Counted from the stretch's first letter, positions 5,261-61,825 are shown. The stretch is 64,000 bases of DNA from Candidatus Omnitrophota bacterium (GCA_026387455.1 JAPLLR010000014.1:5052-69051); one strand, 5' to 3'. Numbers and translations are program-made. Notes: generated by a model not told the origin, from the letters alone.

Positions 5261-5360
5261 AATGATTTAGAATATAAAACTTACAGATTAACCCTCCTCA
5301 ATATATTCTATCACAGAGGGTTGATAATTCAAATTCCAAAAATTGTGAGTAATTTGAGAT

Positions 5361-5395
5361 AAATAGAAAGGGCTCAAACGGTTAAGTCCAGCCCT
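5361..5395 (-). terminator. intrinsic terminator, copy D
   Basis: The minus-strand hairpin GGGCUGGACUUAACCGUUUGAGCCC is followed by UUUCUAUUU, downstream of the 5429..5899 gene. Confidence 0.45.
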
Positions 5396-5428
5396 ATGAG
5401 GTACAAGAAAAATTTATTCCAGGAATTA

Positions 5429-5899
5429 TTAAAAGAAAAGTAGCTTTTTCTTAGGGGGGTCTTTTGGCACTGTAGTAGGGGGTGCCTCTGCCTGAGGCTT
5501 TGGCGCCGGAGCGCTCTGCTTAGCCTTGAGCGTCTCGTTCTCTTTGGTTAAAGCGGTGTTTTCTGTTTTTAGCTGCTCAAGCTTCCACTGAGCATCCTTT
5601 AAATCCGCTTCCATGGCGGCAGACCTTTCTTCGCCTGTCTTAAGCTTATTTTCCAGGTCCGTCTTTAGCTGAGTAAAATTCTGCTGCATCTCTTTATTGG
5701 CTTCCAAGTCCCTCTTAAGCCCATCATTTTCTCCGGTCAGCTTCTGGTTCTCTTCCTCCACCACATCTATCTGAAACTGCTTTTCGTTAAGCTGCTGCAA
5801 AAGCCCAACTTTCTGCTTAAGCAAAACAGCACTTAGCGTCACGCAAGCGATAGCGATAACAACCAACCCGATGTTTAAAATTGCTTTAAAGTTCTTCAT
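5429..5899 (-). CDS. membrane-anchored coiled-coil protein, possibly a DivIC/FtsB-like or lipoprotein
   Basis: 156 aa with an N-terminal TM helix, a long heptad-like Q/E/K/L-rich segment and a Pro-rich C-terminus. Confidence 0.5.
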   Translation of the reverse strand: MKNFKAILNIGLVVIAIACVTLSAVLLKQKVGLLQQLNEKQFQIDVVEEENQKLTGENDGLKRDLEANKEMQQNFTQLKTDLENKLKTGEERSAAMEADLKDAQWKLEQLKTENTALTKENETLKAKQSAPAPKPQAEAPPTTVPKDPPKKKLLFF

Positions 5900-5934
5900 T
5901 ATAGGATTTCCCTCTTGTAAGTATACATTTTATA

Positions 5935-7230
5935 TTATCTAATCCACTTTTGCAATCTTTCTTTAGAGCGCTCCTTACCCAAGTGATAGATCACCTCGAA
6001 TAAGCCCGGACCGATGGTTTTGCCGGTCAAAGCCACTCTTATAGGATGGATCAACACCTTTGCCTCTAAACCCAGCTCCGCCATCATATCGCGGAAACAT
6101 TTCTCAATATTCTCGACAGTAAAATCCTGCAACGCGTCCAAACGCTGGACAAATAAAGCGAATTCTTTGGAGAAATCTTTGGAAAGACATTTGGCCTGCG
6201 CGACCGGGTCCATTTTTACTTCTTTCAGAAAGAAAAAATCCGCCCAGTCCACGAAATCATTGACATGCGCCAAACGGGGCTGGAATAATTTCACCAAAGA
6301 CAAAACATACCCGCGGTCAAAATTGTCTTTATCAATACACTTTGCCTCGATCAGCATCGGGATAATATCATCGGTCAGCTTTTCTGAATCAGCGCTCTTT
6401 AAATACTGATTATTCATCCAGTCTAGCTTCTTTAGGTCAAAAGTGGCTGCAGTTTTGTTTACGTCAGTGATATCGAATAGTTTGATCGCCTCATTGATAT
6501 CGATGACTTCCCGGTCTTCTCCCGGAGCCCAGCTTAAAAGCAACAGATAATTCACCAGCGCCTCAGGTAAATAGCCCATCTTACGATAATCCGAAATTGC
6601 AGTAGCCCCCGTCCTTTTGGACAGCCTTCCCCCCTCCATACCCATAATAAGTGGCAGGTGCGCAAAAGCCGGCAGAGGCAGGCCAAGTGCTTCATATAAA
6701 AGGATCTGCTTCGGAGTGTTAGAAATATGATCGTCGCCGCGGATAACGTGGGTAATATTCATCAGCGCATCATCCACTACACAGGCGAAATTATAGGTTG
6801 GAGTGCCGTCAGACTTCATCAATACCTGATCCTTGATATTCTCAGCGTCAAACTCAATATCCCCGCGAATCAGATCCTTAATCTTTATTTTCTGAGGCAT
6901 GACTTTAAAAATTATAGCCTCTCCCGGTTTATCCGGAAGCTTTTCGGTATAGGCCTTGCCTTCTTTTAATAGTTTCTGGGCATATTCGCGGTAGATATCA
7001 AAACGCTTGCTTTGATAGTATATCTCATCCCACTTAAACCCAAGCCAAGTAAGGCTGCCCAGGATCTCATCCACAAACTCTTTCTTTGAGCGCTCTTTAT
7101 CCGTATCTTCTATACGCAAAATGAACTTTCCGTCCTTGGCCCGAATGTAAAGCCAGTTAAAAAGCGCGGTGCGCCCACCTCCGATATGCAAATTTCCCGT
7201 AGGTGATGGGGCGAAGCGAACCCTGATCAT
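5935..7230 (-). CDS. gltX: glutamate--tRNA ligase
   Basis: The HIGG motif (NLHIGGGRTA), a KMSKS-like RLSKR motif and the class I fold layout are present. 431 aa. Confidence 0.85.
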   Translation of the reverse strand: MIRVRFAPSPTGNLHIGGGRTALFNWLYIRAKDGKFILRIEDTDKERSKKEFVDEILGSLTWLGFKWDEIYYQSKRFDIYREYAQKLLKEGKAYTEKLPDKPGEAIIFKVMPQKIKIKDLIRGDIEFDAENIKDQVLMKSDGTPTYNFACVVDDALMNITHVIRGDDHISNTPKQILLYEALGLPLPAFAHLPLIMGMEGGRLSKRTGATAISDYRKMGYLPEALVNYLLLLSWAPGEDREVIDINEAIKLFDITDVNKTAATFDLKKLDWMNNQYLKSADSEKLTDDIIPMLIEAKCIDKDNFDRGYVLSLVKLFQPRLAHVNDFVDWADFFFLKEVKMDPVAQAKCLSKDFSKEFALFVQRLDALQDFTVENIEKCFRDMMAELGLEAKVLIHPIRVALTGKTIGPGLFEVIYHLGKERSKERLQKWIR

Positions 7231-7757
7231 TTTAATTTTATCCCTTCCTCTAAAGCTTTTGTATTTATCTCAATAAGCTCTTTTTTGCCTTGCGGTGCCA
7301 TGTCTTCAAAGACCTTCAGCACTGTATTCGGGTTTACGATTTTTTTCTGGGCTAAATACGCGCCCAATGCCACCATGTTGGCTACTTTAATATTTCCGAG
7401 TTTGAGGGCGATATCGGTAAAAGCGTGGTGCAAAACTTTTAATTTGGCTTGCGCATACCGGGAAGCCAAAGAGCTATTGCTGATCAATAAGCCTTTAGCG
7501 CTAATGCGACTCTTGAAACGCTCCAGTGACGGAGCGTTCATGATTATCAATGTATCTGCAATATCAATAAAAGGAGAACCTATCTCGGTATCTGATATGA
7601 TTACCATACAATATGCAGTGCCTCCGCGCACCTCCGCCCCATAAGCGGGAAGCCAGGTGACAGACTTACTTTCACGCATCGCCGCATCGGCAAGCACCTT
7701 GCCTAAAAGCATTACGCCTTGACCACCAGCTCCGGAGATAATTATTTTCTCAGTCAT
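7227..7757 (-). CDS. 2-oxoacid:ferredoxin oxidoreductase, gamma subunit
   Basis: 176 aa. Its position and sequence are typical of the Por/Kor gamma subunit (GAGGQG motif). Confidence 0.75.
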   Translation of the reverse strand: MTEKIIISGAGGQGVMLLGKVLADAAMRESKSVTWLPAYGAEVRGGTAYCMVIISDTEIGSPFIDIADTLIIMNAPSLERFKSRISAKGLLISNSSLASRYAQAKLKVLHHAFTDIALKLGNIKVANMVALGAYLAQKKIVNPNTVLKVFEDMAPQGKKELIEINTKALEEGIKLK

Positions 7758-8482
7758 TTTATTCTTCCTAAAGGAAATTCTTTAGCCATCACATCCCTGA
7801 TCCACTCCAGCGATTGTTTCGGACTAAGACCCCAGTAAGTCGGACAAGGGGATAAAATCTCAACCAACGAAAATCCCGCGCCGTCTATTTGATTCTGGAA
7901 CGCTTGTTTGATGGCTCTTTTAGTCTTAAGTATCTCCTGTGGACTAGATAATGAGGTCCGCTCGATATATTTGACCCCAGCAAGATACGCCAGCATTTCG
8001 GAAATCTTTAAAGGATAGCCGTGAGTCTTGATATCCCTACCGGCAATAGTGGTCGCGGTCCTCTGACCCACCAATGTTGTGGGCGCCATCTGGCCGCCGG
8101 TCATTCCGTAAACCGCGTTATTGATAAAAACTACAGTGAGATTTTCCCCACGATTAGCCGCGTGAATGGTTTCATTAGTACCAATAGCCGCAAGGTCTCC
8201 GTCACCCTGATAAGTAAAAACGATATTCTGTGGCCGCGCTCTCTTAATAGCTGTAGCTACTGCCAGGGCCCGTCCGTGCGCTGCCTCTGAACAATCAAAA
8301 TTCCAGTAATCATAAGCTATTACCGCGCATCCCACAGGCGCAATAGCAATAATCTTCTCCCTAATGCCCAGCTCATCAATCACCTCTGCTACAAGACGAT
8401 GGGCAATGCCATGTCCGCAGCCAGGACAGTAGTGGGTGGAGACATCTCGTAATGACTTAGGGCGAGTGAAAATATTATCCAC
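7754..8482 (-). CDS. 2-oxoacid:ferredoxin oxidoreductase, beta subunit (TPP-binding)
   Basis: The N-terminus has the CPGCGH motif and a GDG TPP-binding motif (YQGDGDLAAIG). Confidence 0.8.
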   Translation of the reverse strand: MDNIFTRPKSLRDVSTHYCPGCGHGIAHRLVAEVIDELGIREKIIAIAPVGCAVIAYDYWNFDCSEAAHGRALAVATAIKRARPQNIVFTYQGDGDLAAIGTNETIHAANRGENLTVVFINNAVYGMTGGQMAPTTLVGQRTATTIAGRDIKTHGYPLKISEMLAYLAGVKYIERTSLSSPQEILKTKRAIKQAFQNQIDGAGFSLVEILSPCPTYWGLSPKQSLEWIRDVMAKEFPLGRIK

Positions 8483-9530
8483 GTAGCATCTTCCTTATTT
8501 TGCCGACAATCTCATCTTCCGACGGTATTCCGCCGCCTGCGCGACCGAAAAATTCTACCACAGCCTTGCCGTTTACCGCTAATCTCACATCTTCCAGCAT
8601 CTGGCCATAAGACATCTCAACTACCAGAAACTTTACTTTCTTTTTCGTAGCCTTAATAAATGCTTGTTCAGGAAACGGCCACAAAATCATAGGCCGAATC
8701 AACCCAACCTTCAGGCCTTCTTTACACAGCTTATTCATCGCAACCTTGGCAATCCGAGCCATGGTCCCATATGCCACCAGTATAATTTTAGCGTCGTTCA
8801 GATTTGAATCTTCATAGCGCTGTTCTTTTTTCTGAATAGCCGCATAATTACTTTGTAAGATATTATTAACTTCTTCTAAGGCTCCTTCTTTTAAAAGAAG
8901 TGATCTTATAATATTTGGCTCTCTGCCTGCGCATCCAGTCAATGCCCACGGTTTTTTAATTGAAGCTTTTCTGCTGACAGTAGAAATCTGCACAGGCTCC
9001 ATTACCTGGCCCAGCATCCCATCAACAAGAATAATTACCGGAGTGCGGTAAATATCGGCCAGATCAAACGCCTTAAACATCATATCATAAGCTTCCTGTA
9101 CTGTTGCCGGAGCTAAGACAATCGGATGATAATCTCCATGCCCGCCGCCCTTAGTCGCCTGAAAATAATCAGATTGGGAAGGCGCGATATTGCCTAATCC
9201 AGGCCCTCCGCGCATCACATTGACTATCACCGCCGGTAACCGGGATCCGGCTATATAAGAAATTCCCTCCTGCTTCAGGCTCATCCCCGGACTGGATGAT
9301 GAAGTCATGGCCCGCACTCCTGCTGCTGAGGCGCCAAAAACCATATTTATGGCAGCCAGCTCTGATTCCGCCTGAATAAACACTCCTCCTGCCTCTGGCA
9401 TGCGCCAAGACATATACGCAGGGATCTCGTTTTGCGGAGTAATGGGATATCCAGCATAGAAGCTACAGCCTGCCTGTATCGCGCCCTCGGCCATGGCCTC
9501 ATTACCGCTCATCAAACGTTTCATTTCCAC
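8475..9530 (-). CDS. 2-oxoacid:ferredoxin oxidoreductase, alpha subunit
   Basis: 351 aa with the N-terminal pyrimidine-binding domain typical of PorA/KorA. Start and stop overlap the neighbouring subunit genes. Confidence 0.8.
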   Translation of the reverse strand: MEMKRLMSGNEAMAEGAIQAGCSFYAGYPITPQNEIPAYMSWRMPEAGGVFIQAESELAAINMVFGASAAGVRAMTSSSSPGMSLKQEGISYIAGSRLPAVIVNVMRGGPGLGNIAPSQSDYFQATKGGGHGDYHPIVLAPATVQEAYDMMFKAFDLADIYRTPVIILVDGMLGQVMEPVQISTVSRKASIKKPWALTGCAGREPNIIRSLLLKEGALEEVNNILQSNYAAIQKKEQRYEDSNLNDAKIILVAYGTMARIAKVAMNKLCKEGLKVGLIRPMILWPFPEQAFIKATKKKVKFLVVEMSYGQMLEDVRLAVNGKAVVEFFGRAGGGIPSEDEIVGKIRKMLRG

Positions 9531-9724
9531 ACCTCAATACAACAGTCGGGACAGATTACCGCGCACATTGCGCATCCAATACAAACCCCGGTATCTTTAA
9601 AAACCACTGGCTTTACCCCACGCTTATTCAATTCACCATCCGCCATAATCATATTCTTAGAGCAAACACTCACGCACAACAAACACCCCTTGCATTTTTC
9701 TCTGTCTATCTTTATTTTAGGCAT
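9521..9724 (-). CDS. 2x[4Fe-4S] ferredoxin (delta subunit of the oxidoreductase)
   Basis: 67 aa with two CxxCxxCxxxCP motifs. Confidence 0.8.
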   Translation of the reverse strand: MPKIKIDREKCKGCLLCVSVCSKNMIMADGELNKRGVKPVVFKDTGVCIGCAMCAVICPDCCIEVWK

Positions 9725-11586
9725 GATTTAATTTTATCGGCTATACCTTGCGCGTTCAAGCCATATTTTTCAAGCAATAGATCCCGCTTGCCGTGCGGGA
9801 TAAATTCATCCGGCAGCCCTATTCTGACTACAGAGACACCTACCACCTCGTTCACCGCGCTCCCGAACCCTCCGTAGATAATCCCTTCTTCTATAGTGAA
9901 TATCTTCTTAGTCTTTAGGCTTATGCTTTTAAATAAATCCACATCCAGTGGCTTAGCAAAACGGGCATTAACCAGGGTTCCTGACAAACCCTCCTTAGCT
10001 AACAACTCCAGTGCATCCAATGAAGGCTCAACCATGGAACCTAAAGCAATAACCGCGAAATCTTTTCCTTCCCGCAAAACCTCTGACTTTCCCAACTCAA
10101 TGCTTTTTGCGGATGGCGCTGTAACATTATGGATTGTTGACCTAGGATAGCGGATGACTACCGGCTTATCCAGCTCCATGGCAAATTCAAGCATGCCCTC
10201 TAATTCCACGCCATCCTTTGGCGCCATCACAACTAAGTTTGGAATATTGCGCAGATACGTCAAATCAAAAATCCCCTGATGAGTGGCCCCGTCTTCTCCG
10301 ACGATTCCCGCGCGGTCAACAACAAACACCACTCCCGTATTCTGCAAAGCCACATCTTCAATTATCTGATCATACGCCCTCTGCAAAAACGTGGAATACA
10401 CCGCGATCACCGGCTTCAATCCTGCCCGAGCCAGACCCGAAGCAAAACACACCGCGTGCGCTTCGGCAATTCCCACATCAAAAAATCTCTGCGGATACGC
10501 ATCGCGAAACTTATCCAACCCCGTGCCTTCGGGCATAGCTGCGGTAATAGCTATAATTTTCTTGTTCTCTTTGGCCAGACTTACCAATTTATCCCCAAAA
10601 ACATCGGTATAGGACCTGCCTGCAGGGGTGCCTGTAGGCACACTAGCAGATTTTACTGCGGAAACAGGCCGGCCGGAACCTACCTCAAATGGCCCGGTAC
10701 CGTGGAATCTCACCGGATCATTTTCAGACGGAGAATACCCCTTACCTTTTTTGGTGATCACATGCAAAAGCCTTGGGCCCTTTATATACAGGATATTCTT
10801 AATCGCCGGGATCAGTGTATGCAAATCATGGCCATCAAGGGGCCCGAAATAACGAAAACCCATTTCTTCAAAAAGCATCCCCGGCACAAACAAACCCTTA
10901 AGCCCCTCCTCAAACCTATTCACCAGCTTAAGAATGCGGCTCTCGCTAGGCACGCGTGAACGGACAAAACTTTCCAGCTGGTCCTTAAAACGATTATATA
11001 TAGGTAGCGAGATAATCTTATTTAAATAAGTGCTAATAGCGCCTACGTTAGGAGCAATGCTTAATTCATTGGTGTTTAATACTACCAGTATATCTTTTTT
11101 CAAGTGGCCGGCGTTGTTCAACCCTTCAAAACACAGACCCCCGCTTAATGAACCATCCCCTATTACCGCTACGACTTTATAGTGCTCCTGGGTAAAATCC
11201 CGAGCCGCTGCCAGACCTAAAGCCAAAGAAACCGCGCTTGAAGAATGCCCGGTAGTAAAAGAGTCATAAACAGACTCGTCTTTCGAAGGAAAACCGCTTA
11301 TCCCATTAAACTGGCGCAAGGTCTCAAAAGCCGTGTTTCTTCCGGTTAATAATTTATGCGCATAGGCCTGATGCCCGACGTCAAAGATTATTTTATCCGC
11401 CGGCATATCCAGGCAATAGTGCAAGGCAATGATCAACTCCACCGCGCCCAAAGAAGAAGCCAGATGCCCTCCAGTCCTAGAAACTACATCCACCATGCGC
11501 TCCCTGACTTCAATAGCCAGCTGCAGCAGCTGCTCAAGCGGCACCTTATGCAGATCTTGCGGATTATAAATATTTTCTAACAGCAT
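9712..11586 (-). CDS. dxs: 1-deoxy-D-xylulose-5-phosphate synthase
   Basis: 624 aa. It has the transketolase-like TPP motifs (GDGSLSGG) and the typical DXS N-terminus. Confidence 0.9.
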   Translation of the reverse strand: MLLENIYNPQDLHKVPLEQLLQLAIEVRERMVDVVSRTGGHLASSLGAVELIIALHYCLDMPADKIIFDVGHQAYAHKLLTGRNTAFETLRQFNGISGFPSKDESVYDSFTTGHSSSAVSLALGLAAARDFTQEHYKVVAVIGDGSLSGGLCFEGLNNAGHLKKDILVVLNTNELSIAPNVGAISTYLNKIISLPIYNRFKDQLESFVRSRVPSESRILKLVNRFEEGLKGLFVPGMLFEEMGFRYFGPLDGHDLHTLIPAIKNILYIKGPRLLHVITKKGKGYSPSENDPVRFHGTGPFEVGSGRPVSAVKSASVPTGTPAGRSYTDVFGDKLVSLAKENKKIIAITAAMPEGTGLDKFRDAYPQRFFDVGIAEAHAVCFASGLARAGLKPVIAVYSTFLQRAYDQIIEDVALQNTGVVFVVDRAGIVGEDGATHQGIFDLTYLRNIPNLVVMAPKDGVELEGMLEFAMELDKPVVIRYPRSTIHNVTAPSAKSIELGKSEVLREGKDFAVIALGSMVEPSLDALELLAKEGLSGTLVNARFAKPLDVDLFKSISLKTKKIFTIEEGIIYGGFGSAVNEVVGVSVVRIGLPDEFIPHGKRDLLLEKYGLNAQGIADKIKSCLK

Positions 11587-26964: not shown

Positions 26965-27066
26965 GATTACCCCTTGCCTAAACGCTTGTGCTTTTCTGTG
27001 GGGTACCTCATAAAAGCACAAGCAGGCTGCGGGGTATTTTGCCTGTATGAAAATGCTAGCAAAATA
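26965..27066 (-). repeat. two-hairpin structured RNA element, copy B
   Basis: It shares the sequence AAACGCTTG, hairpin H1 with the conserved loop CTGTGGGGTRCCTCA, and hairpin H2 with the stem ATTTTGC/GCAAAAT. The H1 stem differs from copy A by compensatory changes. Confidence 0.45.
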
Positions 27067-27296
27067 AATCCCCGCATTGTGCCGTCGGAAGGATAGTCTG
27101 AACCAAATCTGGTTTCAGGTGGGTGCCTCTCTTGGACGCCAAGGCGTATCAAGAAGTTTTGGCTCCCGTGATAAAGGTGTTGGTTCAACAATTATCGAAT
27201 TTCCAACGAGCACCGCAGGGATTTATAATTTTATCTGCGTTATAAGTATAACACATGTAAGGGGATAAATCAACCCGGTGGAATCCAACCTGCCCC

Positions 27297-43915: not shown

Positions 43916-43918
43916 AGG

Positions 43919-44134
43919 TTAATTTACCGGGTCAAACCCGGTTCTTCCCGAATAGGGATGGCAATGCATCAGCCTGACAAAAGCCTTAAAACCACCCCTG
44001 TAAAAGCCGTATTTTGAGATAGCTTGCAAAGCGAACTCAGAACAGGAGGGATTAAACCGGCAGGCGACCGGCATCATATGCCTGATCGACCCCTGATACA
44101 CGCGGATCAATAAAATGGAGAGTTTCGCCAGCAT
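43919..44134 (-). CDS. yidD: membrane protein insertion efficiency factor YidD
   Basis: 71 aa (YQ..IS....CRF.P.CS.Y). Confidence 0.85.
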   Translation of the reverse strand: MLAKLSILLIRVYQGSIRHMMPVACRFNPSCSEFALQAISKYGFYRGGFKAFVRLMHCHPYSGRTGFDPVN

Positions 44135-44271
44135 CAGCGAGAGATTCTTTTACGGCCTTTTTGACGGCGGCGCCTCAAAACTTCCCTACCGAGACGACTT
44201 TTCATACGCTTGCGAAACCCATGCTTACGCTTACCGACAATATTTGTCGGCGTCTTTAAATTTTTCTTCAT
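44134..44271 (-). CDS. rpmH: 50S ribosomal protein L34
   Basis: Hand translation gives MKKNLKTPTNIVGKRKHGFRKRMKSRLGREVLRRRRQKGRKRISR. Its stop TGA overlaps the yidD ATG as TGATG. It is absent from the ORF track because it is under 60 aa. Confidence 0.85.
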   Translation of the reverse strand: MKKNLKTPTNIVGKRKHGFRKRMKSRLGREVLRRRRQKGRKRISR

Positions 44272-44384
44272 GCTTTTGCTTTCTGCCTGCCGAAAACAGG
44301 CGTAATAGTGTAAAAACCCGCCGGAAAGACTTTCCCGACGGGAAAATGGGCGTCTTGCCCTTTACAAATTCCAAAAGTTTATTG

Positions 44385-44412
44385 ATTATAACATAACGTC
44401 GCACGATGTCAA
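44385..44412 (-). promoter_or_regulatory. sigma70-type promoter for rpmH
   Basis: On the minus strand, TTGACA is followed by a 16-nt spacer and then TATAAT. Confidence 0.55.
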
Positions 44413-44460
44413 CACTTACGTGCGTAAATAAATCCAAACTTCGGCGAGTAAAAATTTTTG

Positions 44461-44488
44461 TTGACCTACTACAGGTTTGATGTATAAT
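44461..44488 (+). promoter_or_regulatory. sigma70-type promoter for dnaA
   Basis: TTGACC is followed by a 16-nt spacer and then TATAAT. Confidence 0.55.
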
Positions 44489-44589
44489 GCCAAGGCTTAA
44501 GCATACAATTGTTACCGCCTTCTATAAATTTTATCTTGCTCTTAGTTATGTTTTGTGTTAACGTAGTAACAATAATTTAACCCTTTTGA

Positions 44590-44631
44590 TTTTCCACAGA
44601 GTTATTCAAGATGTGGATAAGTTGTGGATAG
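44590..44631. promoter_or_regulatory. cluster of DnaA boxes at the dnaA start, in the oriC/dnaA control region
   Basis: The boxes are TTTTCCACA, TGTGGATAA and TGTGGATAG. The coding strand switches here. Confidence 0.6.
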
Positions 44632-52863: not shown

Positions 52864-54702
52864 ATGTGTGGTATCATCGGCTACGTCGGTGAAAAGAACG
52901 CCCAGACCATTCTTTTTAATGGCCTGAAGCGTTTGGAATATCGCGGTTACGACTCAAGCGGCATAGCGGTTATCCATCCGCTCAAAAATCTCCCCTCGAT
53001 CAGAAAAGCTGCCGGCAAGATTGGCGCTTTAGAAAAGCTTCTTAAAGCCAAGCCTCTCGCTGGTTCAGTAGGTATTGCCCACACTCGCTGGGCTACGCAC
53101 GGTGAGCCTAATCAGTTCAACGCCCATCCCCATGCCGATTGCAAAAATGAGATCGCTATCGTGCATAACGGGATCATTGAAAATTACGAAATACTTAAGC
53201 ACCAGCTGATCAAGGAAGGCCATATTTTCCGCAGCCACACTGACACTGAAGTCATCGTCCATTTAATTGAGAAATTCTACAAAGATATCCCTCTTGAAGA
53301 AGCGGTGCGTAAAACGGTTAAGTTTCTGGTAGGTTCTTTCGCCCTCGGGGTGATCGCTAAAAAAGAGCCAAATAAGCTGGTAGGTGTGCGCCTGGGCAGC
53401 CCTTTGATCGTTGCCCTTGGAAACAAAGAAAACTTTATTGCTTCAGATGTCCCGGCGGTACTGGAATATACTAATGAGGTGATATTCCTCGAGGAAAATG
53501 AGTTGGCGGTGCTGACCAAAGAAACCTGTCATATATCTGACCTTAAAGGAAAGCCAATCAACCGCAAGCCTACGCGTATTAATTGGAGCATTGCTCAGGC
53601 TCAGAAAAACGGTTACAAGCACTTCATGCTTAAAGAGATTAACGAGCAGCCGGGGGTCATTGAAAATCTTTTGACCTCTCGTATTCAGAAAGGCACCAAC
53701 CGAATAAGCTTTGAAGAGCAGGGTGTTCCGGAGGATAAGCTCAAAGGTATAAAAAATATTTTCATTGTGGCATGTGGTACGGCATATCACGCCGGGCTGG
53801 TGGGTAAATATATTCTGGAAAATGTCTGCGCGATTCCTACTTCGATCGATGTCTCAAGCGAATTTCGCTATCGTGACTTGTTGATTAATAAGGATACTTT
53901 GGTGATTGCGGTAAGCCAGTCAGGGGAGACTGCGGATACCTTAGCTGGCGTGCGCGAGGCGCGTAAGCGCGGGGCGTCGGTGATCTCTATTTGCAATGTT
54001 TTAGGCTCTACCTTAACCCGTGAATCTGACGGTGTGATTTACACCCATGCCGGGCCGGAAATTGGAGTAGCTTCCACCAAGGCCTACACTGCCCAGCAGG
54101 TAGCGTTTTATCTCTTCTCACTATATTTAGCCGAAATACGTAACTCCTTATCCCAGGAGAAGATAAATAAATATATTGAGGGCTTAAGACAGATTCCTAA
54201 GTTTCAGGAACGCTTGCTGAAAGAGCAGGATAAAATCGGAGCTCTTGCCCGTAGGCATTCGCATTTTGGATCATTCCTTTTCCTGGGCCGTAACATCAAT
54301 TATCCCTCTGCTCTGGAAGGCGCGCTTAAATTAAAGGAAATATCTTATATCCCGGCAGAAGGTTATCCTGCTGGTGAGATGAAGCATGGGCCGATTGCTT
54401 TGATCGACGAATACCGAGCAGTGGTTTGTGTGGCTGTGCAGTCCAAGATTTACGACAAGGTAACTTCCAATATCCAGGAGATCCATTCCCGTCGGGGAAG
54501 AATTATTGTCATTGCCTCCGAAGGGGATAAGGAGATCAAAGAGCTGACTAAAGAAGTTATCTATGTTCCCAGAACCGAAGAATTTTTTTCACCCCTGATA
54601 GTTGCTCTTCCTTTGCAGCTGTTGGCGTATCACATCGCTCTCAAGCGCGGATGTGATGTGGACCAGCCGCGGAATCTGGCTAAGTCGGTTACTGTAGAGT
54701 AA
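52864..54702 (+). CDS. glmS: glutamine--fructose-6-phosphate aminotransferase
   Basis: The N-terminal MCGIIGY and two SIS domains are present. 612 aa. Confidence 0.95.
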   Translation: MCGIIGYVGEKNAQTILFNGLKRLEYRGYDSSGIAVIHPLKNLPSIRKAAGKIGALEKLLKAKPLAGSVGIAHTRWATHGEPNQFNAHPHADCKNEIAIVHNGIIENYEILKHQLIKEGHIFRSHTDTEVIVHLIEKFYKDIPLEEAVRKTVKFLVGSFALGVIAKKEPNKLVGVRLGSPLIVALGNKENFIASDVPAVLEYTNEVIFLEENELAVLTKETCHISDLKGKPINRKPTRINWSIAQAQKNGYKHFMLKEINEQPGVIENLLTSRIQKGTNRISFEEQGVPEDKLKGIKNIFIVACGTAYHAGLVGKYILENVCAIPTSIDVSSEFRYRDLLINKDTLVIAVSQSGETADTLAGVREARKRGASVISICNVLGSTLTRESDGVIYTHAGPEIGVASTKAYTAQQVAFYLFSLYLAEIRNSLSQEKINKYIEGLRQIPKFQERLLKEQDKIGALARRHSHFGSFLFLGRNINYPSALEGALKLKEISYIPAEGYPAGEMKHGPIALIDEYRAVVCVAVQSKIYDKVTSNIQEIHSRRGRIIVIASEGDKEIKELTKEVIYVPRTEEFFSPLIVALPLQLLAYHIALKRGCDVDQPRNLAKSVTVE

Positions 54703-55355
54703 TGCTCTACATCGTCGCAACACCAATAGGTAATCTCAAAGATATAACTTTTCGCGCCGTAGAGGTCCTTAAGTCTGTCGACGCAATAGCCTGCGAAGAT
54801 ACCCGCCACACCAAAATCCTTCTCAACCATTACGGAATAAAAACTCCGACCACTAGTTTTTTCCAGCACAATAGATTTATCAAAGCCGAATATTTAATCA
54901 ACCTTTTGAAAGCGGGTAAGAATATCGCGCTAGTTTCTGACGCGGGAATGCCGGGCATACTTGATCCCGGATACAATCTCATCAATACTGCGATAGAAAA
55001 TAAAATCGAGGTTACGGTTATACCAGGGGCAACTGCATTCATTAACGCGCTTGTTTTGTCGGGAAAGCCGGCGCACGAATTTCATTTCATCGGATTTCTG
55101 CCTAATAAAAAAATCGCGCGGAAAAATAAATTACGTAAAATTTCAAAATTAAAATGCACAATAGTTTTTTATGAATCTTGCCATAGGATAATCTCTTGCC
55201 TTGAAGACATTCAGGAAATTTTTGGAGAAAAAGAAATTGTTTTAGCCCGCGAGCTGACTAAGAAGTTTGAAGAGGTTTTGCGGGGGAGCGCAGAATTAAT
55301 TCTAAAAAAATTTCAGGATTCCCCTCCCCGCGGAGAATTTGTAGCCATTATTTAG
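54702..55355 (+). CDS. rsmI: 16S rRNA (cytidine1402-2'-O)-methyltransferase
   Basis: Tetrapyrrole-methylase fold (MLYIVATPIGNLKDIT). It is short at 217 aa. Confidence 0.8.
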   Translation: MLYIVATPIGNLKDITFRAVEVLKSVDAIACEDTRHTKILLNHYGIKTPTTSFFQHNRFIKAEYLINLLKAGKNIALVSDAGMPGILDPGYNLINTAIENKIEVTVIPGATAFINALVLSGKPAHEFHFIGFLPNKKIARKNKLRKISKLKCTIVFYESCHRIISCLEDIQEIFGEKEIVLARELTKKFEEVLRGSAELILKKFQDSPPRGEFVAII

Positions 55356-55569: not shown

Positions 55570-58500
55570 ATGTCTTCAAAGCCACGGAAGATATTTAAAT
55601 TAATTTCTATATTTTTGTGTCTATCTTTATTCCTTCAGCAATCCGGGTTTGCCCAAGTTGCCGGTGAGCTGAATATCGCAGGACACATCGCCTCACTTCG
55701 CAATTCTCTTACGCAGGATAAATTCCGGCCGCTGCATTTACGCTTCCTTTCTTACAATCCGCAGGAAAATAATTTTCGGTTATTGTTAGATAAGGGAAAT
55801 TTTAAAAATCCAAATAATTCTGAAATCGAGGATGCCTCAAAAATAATTTTGAAATATTTTTTCATCGGCATCTCTTTACCCAATGATTCCTTCTGGGTGA
55901 ACCTGCGCCCGGATTCGCCGGATAATATCATTGATGAGGATCTGGCTAAAACCGATATCGGTAAGGTATTTCTGGAATCGGACTTACAATTGAAGAAAGA
56001 TACAGCTAAGGCCACTTCTCCGGAAACTCCTGAAGGCCGAGAATATTGGAATAAGCTATATCAGAAAGCAGGAGAGCTTTTTGGTGCAAGTAATATTACT
56101 ATCCCTACGCTTACCCGGCCCTGGATAGTTCCCGGTGAAATCATCATCCGCGAAACAGGTGACTCTGCCTACATTTATAAAGCTACGCTTAAAGTTATGC
56201 TGGAGCAGGATTATCTTAAAAACGATGCCGTATATAACTTTAAAGACGAAAAACTAAAACAGCTTAATGAATATGCATCGCAACTCGTGCGCGAATTAAT
56301 TATCCCTAAGCTTACCAAAGAGATCAATACTTCTAAAAGATACGCCTCGCTAAGACAGGTTTACTATTCCCTCATTATGGCTCATTGGTTTAAGAGCAGA
56401 TTTTCCGGGAAATCCGGCCTTTATGCTTCGCTCATCGATAGGCGTAACTTAAACGGTCTTAACAGTTTAATTCCCTGTTCCAAAGAAAACTATTTTAAAG
56501 AATACCAAAAGTCCTTTAAAGAAGGGGAGTATAACATTCAGGAGTCTATTCAGACGCCCTTTGGGCAGACAATTAGAAGTTATTTTTCCGGTGGGATTGA
56601 GGTGGGAGGGGTTGGGGTTTCGAAAGCGATCGTTAATGGAGCAAGGGTTACGTCTACCAGAGAAGCTCCGGCAAAAACTTTTAACGTGAGAGAGGTGTTT
56701 GGTCGATCTACCTCAGCAGCGCCGTATTCAATAGAGGCAAAAGCAGGGCCAGAAAATGTATCCGCCCCCGAAGCGAGCGCAGTCCTAAGCAAATCAGGGG
56801 GTGTTGGTAAGGTTACTATTCGCGCTGATGAGCGAGAGGAAGCGCGATTTGCCACTTTAAACGAAGCGTTTGTTCATGTCCGAGAGAGGATTAAAGAAAC
56901 CGATCGTCCCGTGATACTCTTGTTTTCCGGAAAGTCTAATACGGGGAAAAGTACACTGCTTAGTGCGATTCTACGGCCTGAAGAACGCCAAAGAACCAAA
57001 GAGCTGTATGAGTATGATGTCGGAATCTTGGGTTTAAAACCGCAGGATGTCTTAGGCATAAGAGACCGCGATTTCTGGGCATATTTTGAGAGGACTAAAA
57101 GAGGAGAAGAGACTCCTTCCGAAATCTATGAAGCATTATATCCTTATTTACAGGCACTAATAGGAGACAAAGATTTATTGAAGGGCATGACCGAAGGGAA
57201 ATACCTCAGTTATTTTGTTAATGAGCACCTGCCGCAATTGCTGCAAAGTCAAAATAAGAGCGTGGTTATCTGGGATGAAGCTTTTGCTGAAGGTAGATTT
57301 GCATTGGCTAGAAGGTATATTCCGCAAACCAAGACCCCGTTTACTGTTATCAGCCTGACCATAGAAGAAGGCCAGGGGGGCGTCGGCCGTTCGGCAAGAG
57401 TGAGTTCTTGGGAATGGGGAAGGCAAGAAGCTGCTCTCGTCTCCGCCCCCGCTGCCTCTTCGGCGATGGGAATTATACCTGTAGGCGAGTCTGAGCAAAA
57501 GGTAACCCAAGGTAATGATTATGGTACAGAGTTTGATACGCTTATGAAAGAAGAGCTTGAAAAAGAAATAAAATCCCAGAAAGGTTTTTCCCCATTTCAG
57601 GTACAAAGAGCCGAGGAGATCGATATTAGGAATGTCTATATTGTGGATTATGCTCCTGCTGGAGGCCGAGTATACCGTGCAGAGTCTTCAGGGAGCGATA
57701 ACTTTCTTATCTTTGCCGACAAAAACGAAAATGTTATTGCTGTTGCCGTAGATAGCGGAGGAGAGAATAGTTTTGGTATTTCGCGAATTGGCGGTAGGGA
57801 TATGCAGACCGGATATACCATGCTTGAAGAGGAGAGCCGAGCAGTAATTGCTAAGAAATTTGTAGAATATAAAACCGTAGAGGCCAGAATAAAAGATAGG
57901 AGCGAGGAATTCGGTTCTATGGTTAGGGAGCCCAAGATCGCCAAGATGTTCCTTCCGTTGATAAATCCTTATTTTAGCATAGAAGACCTTAGAAATTATT
58001 TTATAGAAAACTCAGTCATTAGAAATCTTGTAAGGCATTTAGGGGCAGAAGCAATTCTTACCTTTCAAAGAGATATACTGTTTGAATACAAGCTTAAACG
58101 GGCAAGCGGGATTTCAAGCAGCGGGCATACGGCTTATAGCCTACAGTATTATCGGATGAGGGATAAAGACTCTCTGCCGCACATTGAATCAGTCGCTCAC
58201 GAATTCACCCATGAAATATTTAGAAGATTAGATAAATTAGACACTTCCGCAAGAATTGATCTCGCCAAATATTTTTTTGATAATCGCAAAAGCCTAGAAG
58301 CCGTTATAAGAAGCAGTCCGCTATATAAGGATAGAATCAGAGATGCCATTTTGACCGAAATGCTTGCTTATATAGTGGGAAATCTTGCTAGAGGCAATCT
58401 GATGGTCACAGTTGGCAGCGGTATTGATGAAATCCAAAAGAGCGACGTAGCGATTTTATTAAAGCACAAATTATTACCAGCTGAGTTTGAAGGTTTGTTT

Positions 58501-61173
58501 TCTGATGGCATAGCAGGGATAAAGCCAGGCGAACGTATATACACAGAAGATTTAGCCAGGGTTTCTCCTCAGGCAAGAGAGATATTGCAAAGAACAAGGC
58601 CAACAGGAAACGCATCGGGTCGGGAAACCGTTCCTCCCGCCGTGCAATCCGACCTTGGCGCGCAGGTGGCTAATGCCAGGAACCTTCAGGTGCTGATGCG
58701 GTATTTGGGTCGCTATGTTGTGGAGACAGGGCAGCTCGGGCCAGCGCGTTTAAGCGCTAGATTTTCCAGCGAAGCGGAATTTATGAATGGGGTGATTGCG
58801 CAGCTTGACAATTTGGTAAGCGAGCAGGAGGATGCCTTCGGCAACAAAATTGTGATCATTAACGAATCGCAGGTGCGGAAAGGCGATTTTGCTTATGAGA
58901 TGATTCAGACTATTCGCTCTCGGCTCATCCGTCCGCAGGAAGGAGTCAAGGCAGTGAACTTCTTCGCTTCGGACGGTAAATGGACAGTGCTGATGTTTAG
59001 CCAGGAAGCCCGGGACCCCGCTAACTTAAGACACGAACAAAGGGAGATCGCTTTGCGTAAGCTAGGCCTTAGCTGGCGTTCAGCGCACGAATTAGTAGAG
59101 GCTGGTCGGGATAGTTTTGTCGAAGGAAACTTAAACAGCCAGGAAAAGCAGGAAATTACTGACAAGCTCGGGCAGCTGAAAGCAATCCTCCAAGATAGCA
59201 GCATCCCGCAGGCAAAGCGCGATCTTCTCTTCCGCGTCATTACCGATGATGCCGCTTTATTGACGATACTCGGCCTTAAGCCGGTTACAGTTCAAATCAA
59301 CGGATCTGGCTTTGCAAGCACTAACGCAGCCGATCTTAATGAGATTTTGCAAAAAGTGAACAGTCTTTTGACAATACGGCGCCTGGAAATTGACGGTAAG
59401 AACGTTGGATTGTTATTTGTGGATTGCCTTAAGGCCGGGATGATACTTGGTGATAATAATTCGGGTTCAGTTGTGGCTCATGTAGAAGATTTGGTCATAG
59501 GAGGCCGCAGTACAGATTTGCTTACCCTTGACCGCAGTTCTGAAATAAAGGGATTTTTGCATGGCATACCCGCAACTGAAGCGCGGGAAGACCTTCAAAG
59601 AGGGGGAAGGACTTTAATAACAGTGTTCAGTCCGCTTTCCGGAAGGCAGGCATTTGGATGGTCAGCGCTTGATCCACAAAGCCAAGATAATAACCGTGCC
59701 TTTGGCCGTTATCAAGAGGCCTACATCATTGCCGGAAGAGTTTTAGGTAACGCTTTATTGGAGGAATACCGCAGGTCCTGGCGAGAAGATGTCGGCGCTC
59801 AGGAAGAGCCCGGAGCTTTTACTGATGTTCCCGACGGAATCTATCTTGCAGAAACACTGACAACTACGTCCAGGTCTCCAGATGATATCTCGCGGGAAAT
59901 TACCGCTGTAATGAATGAGAGTTTTAATCTGGGCTTTTCAGATGCCGAAGTCGATCAGCAGAAGGTAGCTTATTCTAACCTAACTAAGAGTAATTTTGGG
60001 GGGTCGCGTACTATATTGGCGGCAGTGAGGGGCGGGAGAATGGTTGGCGCTCTGAATGCCTTTGAGCGCTCCGGAGGAAAAAGCTGGCACATAGCCAGTC
60101 TGGGGGTGAAGCCAGGAGATCAGCGGGGTAGTGTAGGCACAGGACTAGCGGACCAATTTATTAAGGGCCTAATTATTTCTACCGAAGCGCGTGAGTTTGA
60201 TATTGAAGTATCTCCTGCAGCGATCGATTTCTGGGAGAGATATTTTGTGAAGAGAGGTATTGATTCCTCAGAGCGTAGGTCGGACTGGTGGCTTGAAGCT
60301 AAGCCGCCATATACCGACGCGCGCGGCCATAAATTTTTTACCGTAACCATTAATACAAAGATTGCTGCGACTCAGTCGGAGCCACTCGAATCCGCAATCG
60401 CCGATATGGTCAAGAGTAAAAAAGGCGAAGTAGTGGTTACAGCGGATAACGGGGAAAGATTTGTGTTCCGGTATTCCCATGCTGGCTCCAATGAGGAAAT
60501 CGGTTGGCGGGAAAGTAGGTATAAGGTAGAGGTGTTTTCTGAGGGTCGGACAAACCCCGTAGGGTTTGTACATTTTTCTGTTCATGAACCAACAGAAAGA
60601 TTGTTGGAGCGGGATTCATGGAGAAAAACTTTTGCCCTGGTATCTTTGTCTTTTAAGGGGGAAGGCGACAATAATGCCATCTTTGTGGAGAATAATTACC
60701 GTGAATCCGGTATCGGCACGTCTCTTATGGGTTTTGCTATGCGCTTGGCAATACAGATGGGCGCAGAAAAATTTGAAGCGCAGCCGGTAATAAATGATGG
60801 GTTTTTTAAGAGTCTAGGTTTTAATTATCTAGGAAAAGATTTGCACGAAGACAACGCTTATGATTTTCGGTTTAACAAAGGAAAAGAGCTTCCGCAGATA
60901 GCGATTCATTTTCAGAAAGCAAATTCTGATGCAAAAGGTAGAACCGGTGGCATTGATTTCCGCGCACTCCCGATTACCATACAGCCGCCGATTCTTCCAC
61001 AGGGGCTGCCCCCATCAGGGCTATCCTCTGGCTTATCAAAGGGGGCTGTCCCCGGATTCGCGTTAAAGCAATTGCTTGTTCTTCTGGAGTCGGATAAGCC
61101 GGCCGTAGAATTAAAGCTGGCGCTAAGCGGTATTGAGGTTACATCAAAGGAACCATTACTGGTTACACCGTAA
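55570..61173 (+). CDS. giant secreted multidomain protein with a signal peptide, a P-loop NTPase-like region, an HExxH motif, two GNAT-like acetyltransferase domains and a Pro-rich C-terminal tail
   Basis: A single 1867-aa ORF with an AAGGAAG RBS. The signal peptide is MSSKPRKIFKLISIFLCLSLFLQQSGFAQ. Walker A lies at aa 452-461 (GKSNTGKST) and Walker B-like at about 565 (VVIWDE). HEFTH lies at aa 877-881. GNAT motif A/B-like segments lie at about 1515-1560 (QRGSVGTGL...FWERYFVKRG) and about 1708-1752 (YRESGIGTSL...FFKSLGF). Confidence 0.7.
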   Translation: MSSKPRKIFKLISIFLCLSLFLQQSGFAQVAGELNIAGHIASLRNSLTQDKFRPLHLRFLSYNPQENNFRLLLDKGNFKNPNNSEIEDASKIILKYFFIGISLPNDSFWVNLRPDSPDNIIDEDLAKTDIGKVFLESDLQLKKDTAKATSPETPEGREYWNKLYQKAGELFGASNITIPTLTRPWIVPGEIIIRETGDSAYIYKATLKVMLEQDYLKNDAVYNFKDEKLKQLNEYASQLVRELIIPKLTKEINTSKRYASLRQVYYSLIMAHWFKSRFSGKSGLYASLIDRRNLNGLNSLIPCSKENYFKEYQKSFKEGEYNIQESIQTPFGQTIRSYFSGGIEVGGVGVSKAIVNGARVTSTREAPAKTFNVREVFGRSTSAAPYSIEAKAGPENVSAPEASAVLSKSGGVGKVTIRADEREEARFATLNEAFVHVRERIKETDRPVILLFSGKSNTGKSTLLSAILRPEERQRTKELYEYDVGILGLKPQDVLGIRDRDFWAYFERTKRGEETPSEIYEALYPYLQALIGDKDLLKGMTEGKYLSYFVNEHLPQLLQSQNKSVVIWDEAFAEGRFALARRYIPQTKTPFTVISLTIEEGQGGVGRSARVSSWEWGRQEAALVSAPAASSAMGIIPVGESEQKVTQGNDYGTEFDTLMKEELEKEIKSQKGFSPFQVQRAEEIDIRNVYIVDYAPAGGRVYRAESSGSDNFLIFADKNENVIAVAVDSGGENSFGISRIGGRDMQTGYTMLEEESRAVIAKKFVEYKTVEARIKDRSEEFGSMVREPKIAKMFLPLINPYFSIEDLRNYFIENSVIRNLVRHLGAEAILTFQRDILFEYKLKRASGISSSGHTAYSLQYYRMRDKDSLPHIESVAHEFTHEIFRRLDKLDTSARIDLAKYFFDNRKSLEAVIRSSPLYKDRIRDAILTEMLAYIVGNLARGNLMVTVGSGIDEIQKSDVAILLKHKLLPAEFEGLFSDGIAGIKPGERIYTEDLARVSPQAREILQRTRPTGNASGRETVPPAVQSDLGAQVANARNLQVLMRYLGRYVVETGQLGPARLSARFSSEAEFMNGVIAQLDNLVSEQEDAFGNKIVIINESQVRKGDFAYEMIQTIRSRLIRPQEGVKAVNFFASDGKWTVLMFSQEARDPANLRHEQREIALRKLGLSWRSAHELVEAGRDSFVEGNLNSQEKQEITDKLGQLKAILQDSSIPQAKRDLLFRVITDDAALLTILGLKPVTVQINGSGFASTNAADLNEILQKVNSLLTIRRLEIDGKNVGLLFVDCLKAGMILGDNNSGSVVAHVEDLVIGGRSTDLLTLDRSSEIKGFLHGIPATEAREDLQRGGRTLITVFSPLSGRQAFGWSALDPQSQDNNRAFGRYQEAYIIAGRVLGNALLEEYRRSWREDVGAQEEPGAFTDVPDGIYLAETLTTTSRSPDDISREITAVMNESFNLGFSDAEVDQQKVAYSNLTKSNFGGSRTILAAVRGGRMVGALNAFERSGGKSWHIASLGVKPGDQRGSVGTGLADQFIKGLIISTEAREFDIEVSPAAIDFWERYFVKRGIDSSERRSDWWLEAKPPYTDARGHKFFTVTINTKIAATQSEPLESAIADMVKSKKGEVVVTADNGERFVFRYSHAGSNEEIGWRESRYKVEVFSEGRTNPVGFVHFSVHEPTERLLERDSWRKTFALVSLSFKGEGDNNAIFVENNYRESGIGTSLMGFAMRLAIQMGAEKFEAQPVINDGFFKSLGFNYLGKDLHEDNAYDFRFNKGKELPQIAIHFQKANSDAKGRTGGIDFRALPITIQPPILPQGLPPSGLSSGLSKGAVPGFALKQLLVLLESDKPAVELKLALSGIEVTSKEPLLVTP

Positions 61174-61270: not shown

Positions 61271-61299
61271 TTGACATCAACCGGATTCGATGGTATATT
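61271..61299 (+). promoter_or_regulatory. sigma70-type promoter of the pyr operon
   Basis: TTGACA is followed by a 17-nt spacer and then TATATT. Confidence 0.5.
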
Positions 61300-61322
61300 T
61301 ACACTAACAATTTAACCTTTAA

Positions 61323-61418
61323 GGCCAGCCCAGAGAGGCTGGCAAGGTGAGGAAATGAATCACGCTAAAGTAAAACATAACCGGTCCTTAGCAATAAAAC
61401 AGCTAAGGACCTTTTTTT
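61323..61418 (+). promoter_or_regulatory. PyrR-type transcription attenuator, made of a binding loop and an intrinsic terminator
   Basis: GGCCAGCCCAGAGAGGCUGGCAAGG matches the PyrR binding-loop consensus (UCCAGAGAGGCU...AAGG). It is followed by the hairpin GGUCCUUAGC...GCUAAGGACC and then UUUUUUU, directly upstream of pyrR. Confidence 0.7.

Positions 61419-61824
<406 letters not shown>

Positions 61825-61825
<1 letters not shown>

Follow-up and report, generated by a model that had tools for sequence, protein, structure and literature searches.

We analysed a 64,000-nucleotide stretch of DNA from a Candidatus Omnitrophota bacterium (GCA_026387455.1, JAPLLR010000014.1:5052-69051; hereafter the window), in which positions 55570-61173 of the (+) strand hold one uninterrupted open reading frame (ORF) that starts with ATG and encodes 1867 amino acids (aa), as an initial annotation of the sequence had stated. 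The product is identical to NCBI MCX5704695.1, a "hypothetical protein" from a Candidatus Omnitrophota metagenome-assembled genome, which is known from one 71-kb contig and is the sole member of its own 90%-identity cluster. The gene belongs to a large, lineage-specific family, one member of which fills the origin-proximal slot between dnaA-dnaN-gyrB-gyrA-glmS-rsmI and pyrR-pyrB; the frame of the family is constant, its interior (hereafter the cargo) variable, its genomic slots conserved, and its distribution restricted to this lineage. The features of the locus are the following.

54702-55355, (+): rsmI (TP_methylase; Pfam PF00590, E 2e-33), upstream flank of the conserved slot
55570-55653, (+): signal-peptide-like N-terminus, aa 1-28, assigned from the sequence and family conservation, presumably cleaved
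55654-56604, (+): constant N-terminal domain (N-domain), aa 29-345, predicted alpha/beta with two long beta hairpins, ending in RSYFSGG
56605-56856, (+): low-complexity linker, aa 346-429, predicted disordered, where likeness to relatives stops
56857-57390, (+): P-loop NTPase-like cargo module, aa 430-607, with Walker A at 56929-56955 and Walker B at 57262-57285
57514-58578, (+): HExxH...E cargo module, aa 649-1003, a putative metal-dependent hydrolase, with HEFTH at 58198-58212 and Glu930 at 58357-58359
58642-59169, (+): recurrent HEQxE cargo module, aa 1025-1200, with the signature LGAQV ... HEQxEIxxRKxGLSWxxAH
59170-59967, (+): cargo region aa 1201-1466, no family recognised
59968-60243, (+): first GNAT acetyltransferase domain, aa 1467-1558 (PF13673)
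60457-60825, (+): second GNAT acetyltransferase domain, aa 1630-1752 (PF00583, PF13508), with the acetyl-CoA loop RESGIG at 60700-60717
60937-61170, (+): truncated family C-terminal module (C-module), aa 1790-1867, with GGIDFRALP, a Pro-rich linker and the last two helices; ~64 residues (helices 1-3) gone
61312-61825, (+): PyrR-binding leader RNA (61312-61419; Rfam RF00515) and disrupted pyrR; pyrB starts at 61825

A constant frame around a variable interior

Comparison with database proteins separated the ends of the protein sharply from its interior. At least 816 homologues aligned with aa 1-350 only (57-81% identity) plus the last residues; the best 119 non-self matches were all confined to aa 1 to ~350, many of them covering also the last 36-90 residues, with almost nothing between. 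Over aa 1-345 the window protein was 57-81% identical to all members among the matches listed, with 75 invariant columns. A HMMER scan with aa 1-400 retrieved 7,484 cluster representatives at E≤0.001 (5,829 at E≤1e-30); among the 150 listed HMMER matches, proteins ranged from 410 to 7,391 aa in length, and nearly all alignments began only a few residues from the N-terminus. All named homologues were Omnitrophota. The initial annotation had called the architecture unique, and the full architecture did occur in no other database protein (a singleton at 90% identity), but its frame is that of a family with at least 7,484 cluster representatives. Its comparison with the very large ORFs of uncultivated lineages was apt, the protein belonging to the large multi-enzyme ORFs of Omnitrophota.

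The relatives carried a wide assortment of Pfam cargo: Ser/Thr and UbiB kinases, HATPase, metallophosphatases, S-adenosylmethionine (SAM) methyltransferases, GNATs, M48 and M23 peptidases, NUDIX and HAD hydrolases, glycosyltransferases, radical SAM and PEP-utilising enzymes, and HEAT and TPR repeats.

We then modelled the two constant ends. For the N-domain, a moderately confident AlphaFold model based on a 35-sequence alignment gave the alpha/beta fold with two long beta hairpins listed above (predicted local distance difference test, pLDDT, 71; predicted template modelling score, pTM, 0.65), with pLDDT <50 at aa 319-385 and 391-400 and disorder past residue 319. Foldseek comparison of this model with known structures returned nothing at E<0.1, aa 1-400 had no Pfam match at E≤10, and NCBIfam had none in the N-domain region. 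The C-module, common to most members, consists of a GGIDFRxLP(I/V)xTQ motif, a variable and often Pro-rich linker, and a helical core; the GGIDFR-like motif lay 110-135 aa before the C-terminus in 42 of 49 complete relatives. In the closest relative (P0003) this core is predicted to be a compact five-helix bundle (pLDDT ~95), and the leads from fold searches were set aside, the only matches being generic helical bundles. Neither the N-domain nor the C-module can be assigned to a known family. The Pro/Leu-rich tail of the initial annotation is present (aa 1793-1830), yet it is no separate element: it is the variable linker inside the conserved C-module.

Two further ideas about the frame were discarded: RTX repeats, GGIDF lacking the second Gly, and exceptional conservation of the N-domain, whose 62-75% identity was slightly below that of RsmI and GlmS of the same genomes. 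As a separate observation, Gly-Gly-Ile stands at both borders of the variable interior (RSYFSGG-I at aa 336-343, GG-IDFR at aa 1793-1798), with P0017, P0026, P0029 and P0048 as further examples among the relatives, and ahead of the C-module some relatives have additional copies, GGIDG or GGIDP; these borders may be processing sites that would release the cargo.

Conserved slots and turnover of the cargo

We examined the genomic surroundings of the family through a scan of one genome per species, which yielded 368 loci, at most three per genome, of which 80 were retrieved and inspected. Nearly all 80 were labelled Omnitrophota. Several loci (L001, L011-L013, L016 and others) bore the label "uncultured Planctomycetales" and L053 that of a Thermodesulfovibrionia bin; since their housekeeping neighbours resemble those of Omnitrophota loci, these labels are probably taxonomic mislabels or contaminated bins.

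Clustering of neighbouring ORFs revealed three recurrent contexts. The context of the window, with dnaN-gyrB-gyrA-glmS-rsmI directly upstream, was found in 26 of the 80 loci, and pyrR-pyrB-pyrC followed wherever the downstream flank was recovered. P0003 occupies the same slot, and rsmI is directly upstream also at L081. A second context (type B; L024, L029-L031, L049, L059, L061, L079) places 439-aa and 1020-aa ORFs upstream and a 675-aa helicase-like ORF downstream, and a third (type C; L047, L063, L066, L073-L075, L078) a 241-aa ORF upstream. The initial annotation had found the presence of such a gene in a core region odd; the neighbours are indeed all housekeeping genes on the same strand, but the position is not odd, because a family member stands there in those 26 loci and in the closest relative.

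The contents of the slot differed widely between genomes. Proteins at the rsmI-pyrR slot ranged from 1,457 to more than 3,748 aa, the Pfam cargo of the slot orthologues was GT9, GT4 plus kinase, GNAT or none, and BLAST coverage of the interior was below 10% for every pair of complete orthologues. Between L038 and L032 the RsmI proteins were 94%, the GlmS proteins 91% and the N-domains 78% identical, whereas the cargo had nothing in common; at the DNA level, identity of 82-83% over 10 kb upstream fell to 73% in the N-domain and became undetectable in the remaining 10 kb of the gene. Likewise, DNA identity between the window and L081 was 76-78% over rsmI and the N-domain to position 56594, then undetectable until 61056, from where (the last 118 nt of the ORF) it resumed through the intergenic region, pyrR, pyrB and pyrC. 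A more closely related trio (L009, L012, L021) had 36-80% of its cargo in common, as a mosaic with relocated blocks. Across 142 members, N-domain and C-module identities were correlated (rho 0.41) even where the cargo was unrelated, and 97% of pairs had <10% of their cargo in common, a figure inflated by databases that hold one representative per cluster. Judging from these sequence comparisons, the cargo turns over fast relative to its genomic background.

Cargo modules of the window protein

We investigated each module of the cargo by profile, structure and metagenome searches. The first GNAT domain (Acetyltransf_10, PF13673, aa 1467-1558) scored 31.3 bits against a Pfam cut-off of 23.6 (E 2.3e-7), and the second (Acetyltransf_1, PF00583, aa 1630-1751) 38.4 bits against 20.7 (E 1.7e-9), with Acetyltransf_7 (PF13508) also matching the second at 30.5 bits against 27. 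A PHROG acetyltransferase model matched the second domain too (E 6e-6), the only PHROGs match for the window protein. The acetyl-CoA loop, (Q/R)-x-x-G-x-(G/A), reads RESGIG at aa 1711-1716 in the second domain and appears as a variant, QRGSVGTG, at aa 1518-1525 in the first. On these scores and motifs both GNAT domains are real, in agreement with the initial annotation, whose reservation that no domain might reach significance is removed by the two gathering scores.

The P-loop module has Walker A, GKSNTGKST, at aa 454-462 (not 452-461, as first given), with the hydrophobic run VILLF before it, and Walker B, VVIWDEAF, at aa 565-572. Searched alone, this region drew ten P-loop Pfam families at E 0.0017-0.25, every one below its cut-off, the best being RsgA_GTPase at 18.6 bits against 30; the AAA_22 and ATPase_2 alignments span Walker A through Walker B. 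Neither the comparison of family members nor the metagenome scan found a homologue of the module. The segment aa 430-607 is probably a genuine, divergent P-loop NTPase.

The HEFTH motif lies at aa 877-881 as initially annotated, and Glu930 follows 49 residues downstream. Its module is 34% identical to aa 561-925 of P0002 over ~355 residues (E 5e-55 pairwise; 4e-48 in the family search) and 29% identical to a protein encoded on L082, a contig from a metagenome. All three sequences (window, P0002, L082) keep AHExTHE and the downstream Glu930, P0002 and L082 being the only relatives found. This arrangement fits the gluzincin pattern, putatively, on the thin basis of three sequences. The region aa 640-1010 gave no Pfam match and no PDB sequence match at E≤10; the motif as first described is present, conserved and probably real, though below any curated threshold. 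The L082 protein (5220-9818, 1533 aa) carries HExxH...E right behind its own signal peptide, without the N-domain of the family; cargo modules therefore exist outside the family frame too.

The HEQxE module (~175 residues; aa 1025-1200) recurs in 14 other family members at varying position. Its invariant residues are H1155, E1156, E1159, R1163 and H1173, within the fuller signature LGAQV ... GGVKAINFQ ... HEQxEIxxRKxGLSWxEAH. Relatives with this module are P0005-P0017, P0112, P0123 and P0150; in nine relatives it sits immediately behind the N-domain linker, and these proteins often have M48 and UbiB domains as well. No Pfam relative of the module was found, and a PDB profile search was empty. 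The following segment, aa 1201-1466, had no Pfam, PDB or family match except the tails of two alignments.

Broader searches added little. PDB sequence searches with aa 401-1000 and aa 1001-1450 gave nothing meaningful. A word index of 5.8 billion proteins returned no match for aa 401-1450 or aa 401-1013, not even the source protein, which we read as a limit of the tool rather than as absence; the same index did find the source protein with the full-length query. In metagenome contigs of the Joint Genome Institute (JGI), a degenerate-pattern scan with the whole cargo gave no close relative, and the scan with the HExxH alignment one, L082. PADLOC had no match for the window protein, and no toxin, Rhs, RTX, two-partner secretion (TPS) or defence profile matched it.

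Signal peptide and export

The N-terminus, MSSKPRKIFK-LISIFLCLSLFL-QQSGFA-Q with the putative cleavage site between the final A and Q, has by eye the layout of a Sec signal peptide, as the initial annotation had proposed: four basic residues, then the 12-residue hydrophobic stretch LISIFLCLSLFL, then QQSGFA and Q. Residues Q24, G26, F27, A28 and Q29 were conserved in ≥90% of family sequences, in which the signal ends in (E/Q)QSGFAQ. With basic residues ahead of the hydrophobic stretch and a small-residue motif behind it, the positive-inside rule would place the chain beyond the signal outside the cytoplasm. A mean Kyte-Doolittle hydropathy of 1.56 for the segment fits a cleaved signal peptide rather than an anchor, and the window protein has no further hydrophobic segment, like 76% of family members.

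About 7% of members (about 14 of 204; P0029, P0080, P0095, P0165, P0170, P0183, P0203 and others) have a second signal-peptide-like segment 40-120 residues past the N-domain, built of basic residues, a hydrophobic stretch and an AxA-like end. By its look this segment may be the relic of a captured secreted protein, or it may be a stop-transfer anchor.

Other export signals were considered and rejected: a lipoprotein signal for want of a lipobox, a type IV prepilin signal because G-F comes after the hydrophobic stretch instead of before it, and a sortase LPxTG signal because the motif reads LPIVTQ and no membrane segment comes after it. RR or RK occurs in some relatives, and NCBI labels one relative Tat; a Tat signal seems less likely than Sec, given the hydrophobic core and the absence of a basic c-region.

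State of the window copy and the neighbouring pyr region

In the window protein the GGIDFR motif is only 75 aa from the C-terminus. Compared with P0003, an in-frame loss of ~64 residues has removed helices 1-3 of the five-helix bundle and left the last two; the deletion junction is at ~61045-61060 (aa 1826-1831), with two non-homologous codons (GGA TTC). Some 500 bp away, pyrR is split: a 44-aa ORF (61419-61553) matches PyrR residues 1-44 and the rest continues from 61550 in another frame, the lesion being a frame-breaking deletion of 137 nt relative to L081 6778-6914. The closeness of these two lesions suggests local decay, in which case pyrR would be a pseudogene, or a local assembly problem. 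The window protein is an ordinary family member, possibly damaged.

By contrast with pyrR itself, the leader RNA that PyrR binds has remained intact (RF00515; 56.4 bits, gathering score 54). A sigma-70-like site at 61271-61299 (11 of 12 matches, plus TG), which precedes this leader and belongs to it, is the only strong one in the region; in the promoter scan as a whole, sites were no commoner than in shuffled sequence. Because this site and the leader lie there, the pyr operon would start its own transcription unit just after the large gene.

We also considered the composition of the gene. The codon usage distance of the cargo (0.050) was inside the range of the housekeeping genes of the window (0.058 +/- 0.013), and a foreign origin of the cargo was rejected on this ground; the guanine-plus-cytosine (GC) content varied from 0.40 to 0.53 between modules of the ORF. 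With cargo codon usage in the native range, composition gives no support to a chimera of different organisms. No paralogue of the family was found elsewhere within the window.

The gene order is parA and yidC on the (-) strand, then dnaA, dnaN, gyrB, gyrA, tRNA-Glu, glmS, rsmI, the ORF and pyrB on the (+) strand. An orientation switch (parA/yidC against dnaA/dnaN) spans 43916-44623, and cumulative GC skew climbs steadily from 45 kb; for these two reasons oriC probably lies in that gap. The ORF is ~11 kb from this probable origin, on the strand of the neighbouring housekeeping genes. A 6S RNA gene was also found at 27065-27224 (-) (Rfam RF00013, 61.9 bits against a gathering score of 46.4).

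Comparison with known systems

Long multi-enzyme proteins of Omnitrophota have been described before, in West-Roberts et al. 2023 ('Archaeovorins'; 10.1101/2023.11.21.568195), Nielsen & Lui 2026 ('multi-enzyme metabolic cluster'; 10.64898/2026.06.07.730766) and PMC10066038. These works concern ORFs >20 kb or proteins with 10,000 residues or more, whose N-terminal regions mostly have no identifiable domains. The window protein resembles these giants in its phylum, in its signal peptide (signal peptide or membrane association in the giants), in its nearly genome-unique and mostly unannotated sequence, and in the stringing of cofactor-dependent enzymes (GNAT, methyltransferase, HATPase, HAD, glycosyltransferase, peptidase, NUDIX) on one chain. 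It differs in size (1.9 thousand residues against 10-147 thousand) and falls outside the criteria used for them, ≥10,000 aa (Nielsen & Lui) or a gene >90 kb (West-Roberts), with many transmembrane helices; the window protein has no transmembrane helix beyond the signal peptide.

In the MARTX toxins of Vibrio and its relatives, conserved N- and C-terminal regions serve as a delivery frame, and the effector enzymes between them form a mosaic that strains reshuffle by recombination; these toxins leave the cell by type I secretion without an N-terminal signal peptide. The logic of frame plus mosaic is alike, but the window protein has a Sec-type signal and no sequence or fold relationship to them, and neither the glycine-rich repeats nor the cysteine protease domain of RtxA was detected in it by Pfam. 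Capsule and O-antigen loci are similar in their fixed slot between housekeeping genes, in wholesale replacement between close relatives and in the collapse of DNA identity at the border; here, however, what varies is the inside of one gene, whose own ends belong to the conserved arms.

Two-partner-secretion exoproteins and CdiA toxins (Zhang et al. 2012, PMC3482391) also start with a signal peptide followed by a conserved domain of ~300 residues that marks long variable proteins. Unlike them, the window protein has no Haemagg_act/TPS domain in aa 1-400 (Pfam, E≤10), an N-domain predicted as alpha/beta rather than beta helix, no adjacent TpsB or immunity gene, and a variable part that is internal, with a conserved C-terminus. 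As in dockerin-tagged cellulosome enzymes, unrelated enzymes bear one small terminal module, which would fit assembly on a shared partner, but the C-module is a predicted five-helix bundle with no dockerin profile match or calcium-binding repeats, and no cohesin-like partner was identified.

Discussion

The explanation we favour, at a probability of roughly 0.55, is that the family consists of Sec-exported carriers of a replaceable enzyme cassette, whose constant ends serve a shared machinery and which are used in a host-dependent lifestyle. The protein would leave the cytoplasm through the Sec pathway; its constant ends would be recognised by a common machinery for targeting, surface attachment or delivery; its interior would be a payload swapped by recombination; and the payload enzymes would act in or at a host or prey cell during episymbiotic or predatory life. 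This last step is the most plausible site of action because the enzymes need ATP, acetyl-CoA or SAM and the phylum is host-dependent, Omnitrophota being described as host-dependent, episymbiotic or predatory in PMC10066038. More tentatively, the N-domain and the GGIDFR/five-helix C-module could be the handle of an unrecognised, Omnitrophota-specific delivery or display system, in which a shared machinery encoded at an unlinked site exports, anchors or injects the cassette, and strains swap cassettes at fixed slots in an arms race with their hosts.

Several points weigh against this explanation. Export is read from a signal peptide judged by eye, and if the second segment of about 7% of members stops transfer, it could hold the cargo of those members in the cytoplasm. 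The N-domain has no structural relative, its targeting role is argued from architecture, and its many invariant charged residues would also be compatible with a binding site or with enzymatic activity. None of the three recurrent contexts had a secretion or partner gene linked to it. As for the cargo, neither the P-loop nor the HExxH module reaches a curated threshold, and the pairwise cargo statistics are biased by the composition of the databases. Finally, with three helices gone and pyrR broken, the window copy may be non-functional or locally misassembled.

Two alternatives concern the place where the enzymes work. The exported protein might stay on the cell's own envelope, through an uncleaved anchor or by docking of the N- and C-modules, and modify its own surface or the surface polymers of prey with no entry into another cell. 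Such an envelope or coat role was proposed for giant Omnitrophota proteins with similar domain content by Kizina et al., as cited in PMC10066038, and by West-Roberts et al. (10.1101/2023.11.21.568195). It draws on the same export signals as the exported-carrier explanation, on the GT4, GT9, M23 and M48 peptidases and sugar-nucleotide enzymes among the relatives' cargo, and on the likeness of the predicted five-helix C-module to a protein-protein docking unit; we nevertheless find it doubtful, as the cargo is dominated by GNATs, P-loop NTPases, kinases, SAM methyltransferases and radical SAM enzymes, whose cofactors are not expected outside the cytoplasm, and no cell-wall-binding, dockerin, S-layer or lipobox feature was detected in the window protein. 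The cofactors would be accounted for if the N-terminal hydrophobic helix tethered the protein to the inner membrane and the enzymes faced the cytoplasm, joined into one metabolic or regulatory assembly, the scaffold interpretation that Nielsen and Lui (10.64898/2026.06.07.730766) favour for giants with transmembrane helices only. The location of the genes among same-strand housekeeping genes and the second hydrophobic segment of some members would also suit a scaffold, but the four basic residues before the stretch and the uncharged GFA-Q after it point the rest of the chain outwards by the positive-inside rule, the hydropathy is typical of a cleaved signal and not an anchor, the cleavage-site residues are ≥90% conserved, and the HExxH module sits behind the signal peptide of another protein. 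We regard a cytoplasmic scaffold as unlikely.

The last two alternatives are an artefact and a toxin. An assembly chimera or a decaying pseudogene, functionless in the genome of the window, would account for the two deletions ~500 bp apart (64 residues in frame in the C-module, 137 nt in pyrR), the spread of module GC (0.40-0.53) and the occurrence of the protein on a single contig. Yet a 5.6-kb open frame is improbable in a dead gene, members of the family ordinarily have the order N-domain, cargo, C-terminal tail, both junctions coincide exactly with the points at which relatives, too, turn from conserved to variable, and the codon usage of the cargo is that of the window genes, which together make an artefact very improbable. 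The initial annotation had likened the protein to polymorphic toxins or effectors, which would imply an immunity partner and recent insertion into a core region. A constant N-terminal region with variable enzymatic content exchanged between genomes, and an exact architecture without a twin, recall such toxins; these vary at their C-terminal tip, however, whereas here it is the last 36-130 residues that are conserved. Nor does an immunity-like ORF come next, the interval between 61173 and pyrB containing only pyrR fragments, short chance frames and the PyrR leader RNA. The slot is moreover ancient and syntenic, the codon usage matches the rest of the window, and the toxin, Rhs, RTX, TPS and defence profiles gave no match, so the protein is no polymorphic toxin in the strict sense and we give a toxin with an immunity partner hardly any weight.

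We found no description of the N-domain, the GGIDFR module or the syntenic slots by term searches and in the sections read of the papers on giant proteins, or by further full-text searches, in a limited library that gives no proof of novelty. The family is apparently undescribed, and the interest lies in it more than in the window copy; taken by itself, this copy is of more modest significance, as an ordinary and possibly damaged member.

Omnitrophota occur widely as ultra-small bacteria, most of them uncultivated, and are believed to live on other cells or to prey on them. In their genomes the most conspicuous trait is the long multi-enzyme proteins. To these the family offers a tractable entry point, with thousands of members of moderate size (1-7 thousand residues), a sharp frame, an interchangeable interior and fixed, recognisable positions. 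As the frame is absent from Pfam and NCBIfam, profile models of it could pick out such genes in metagenomes and separate frame from payload. If the frame is indeed a delivery handle, it would represent a new principle of secretion or display in a major bacterial phylum.

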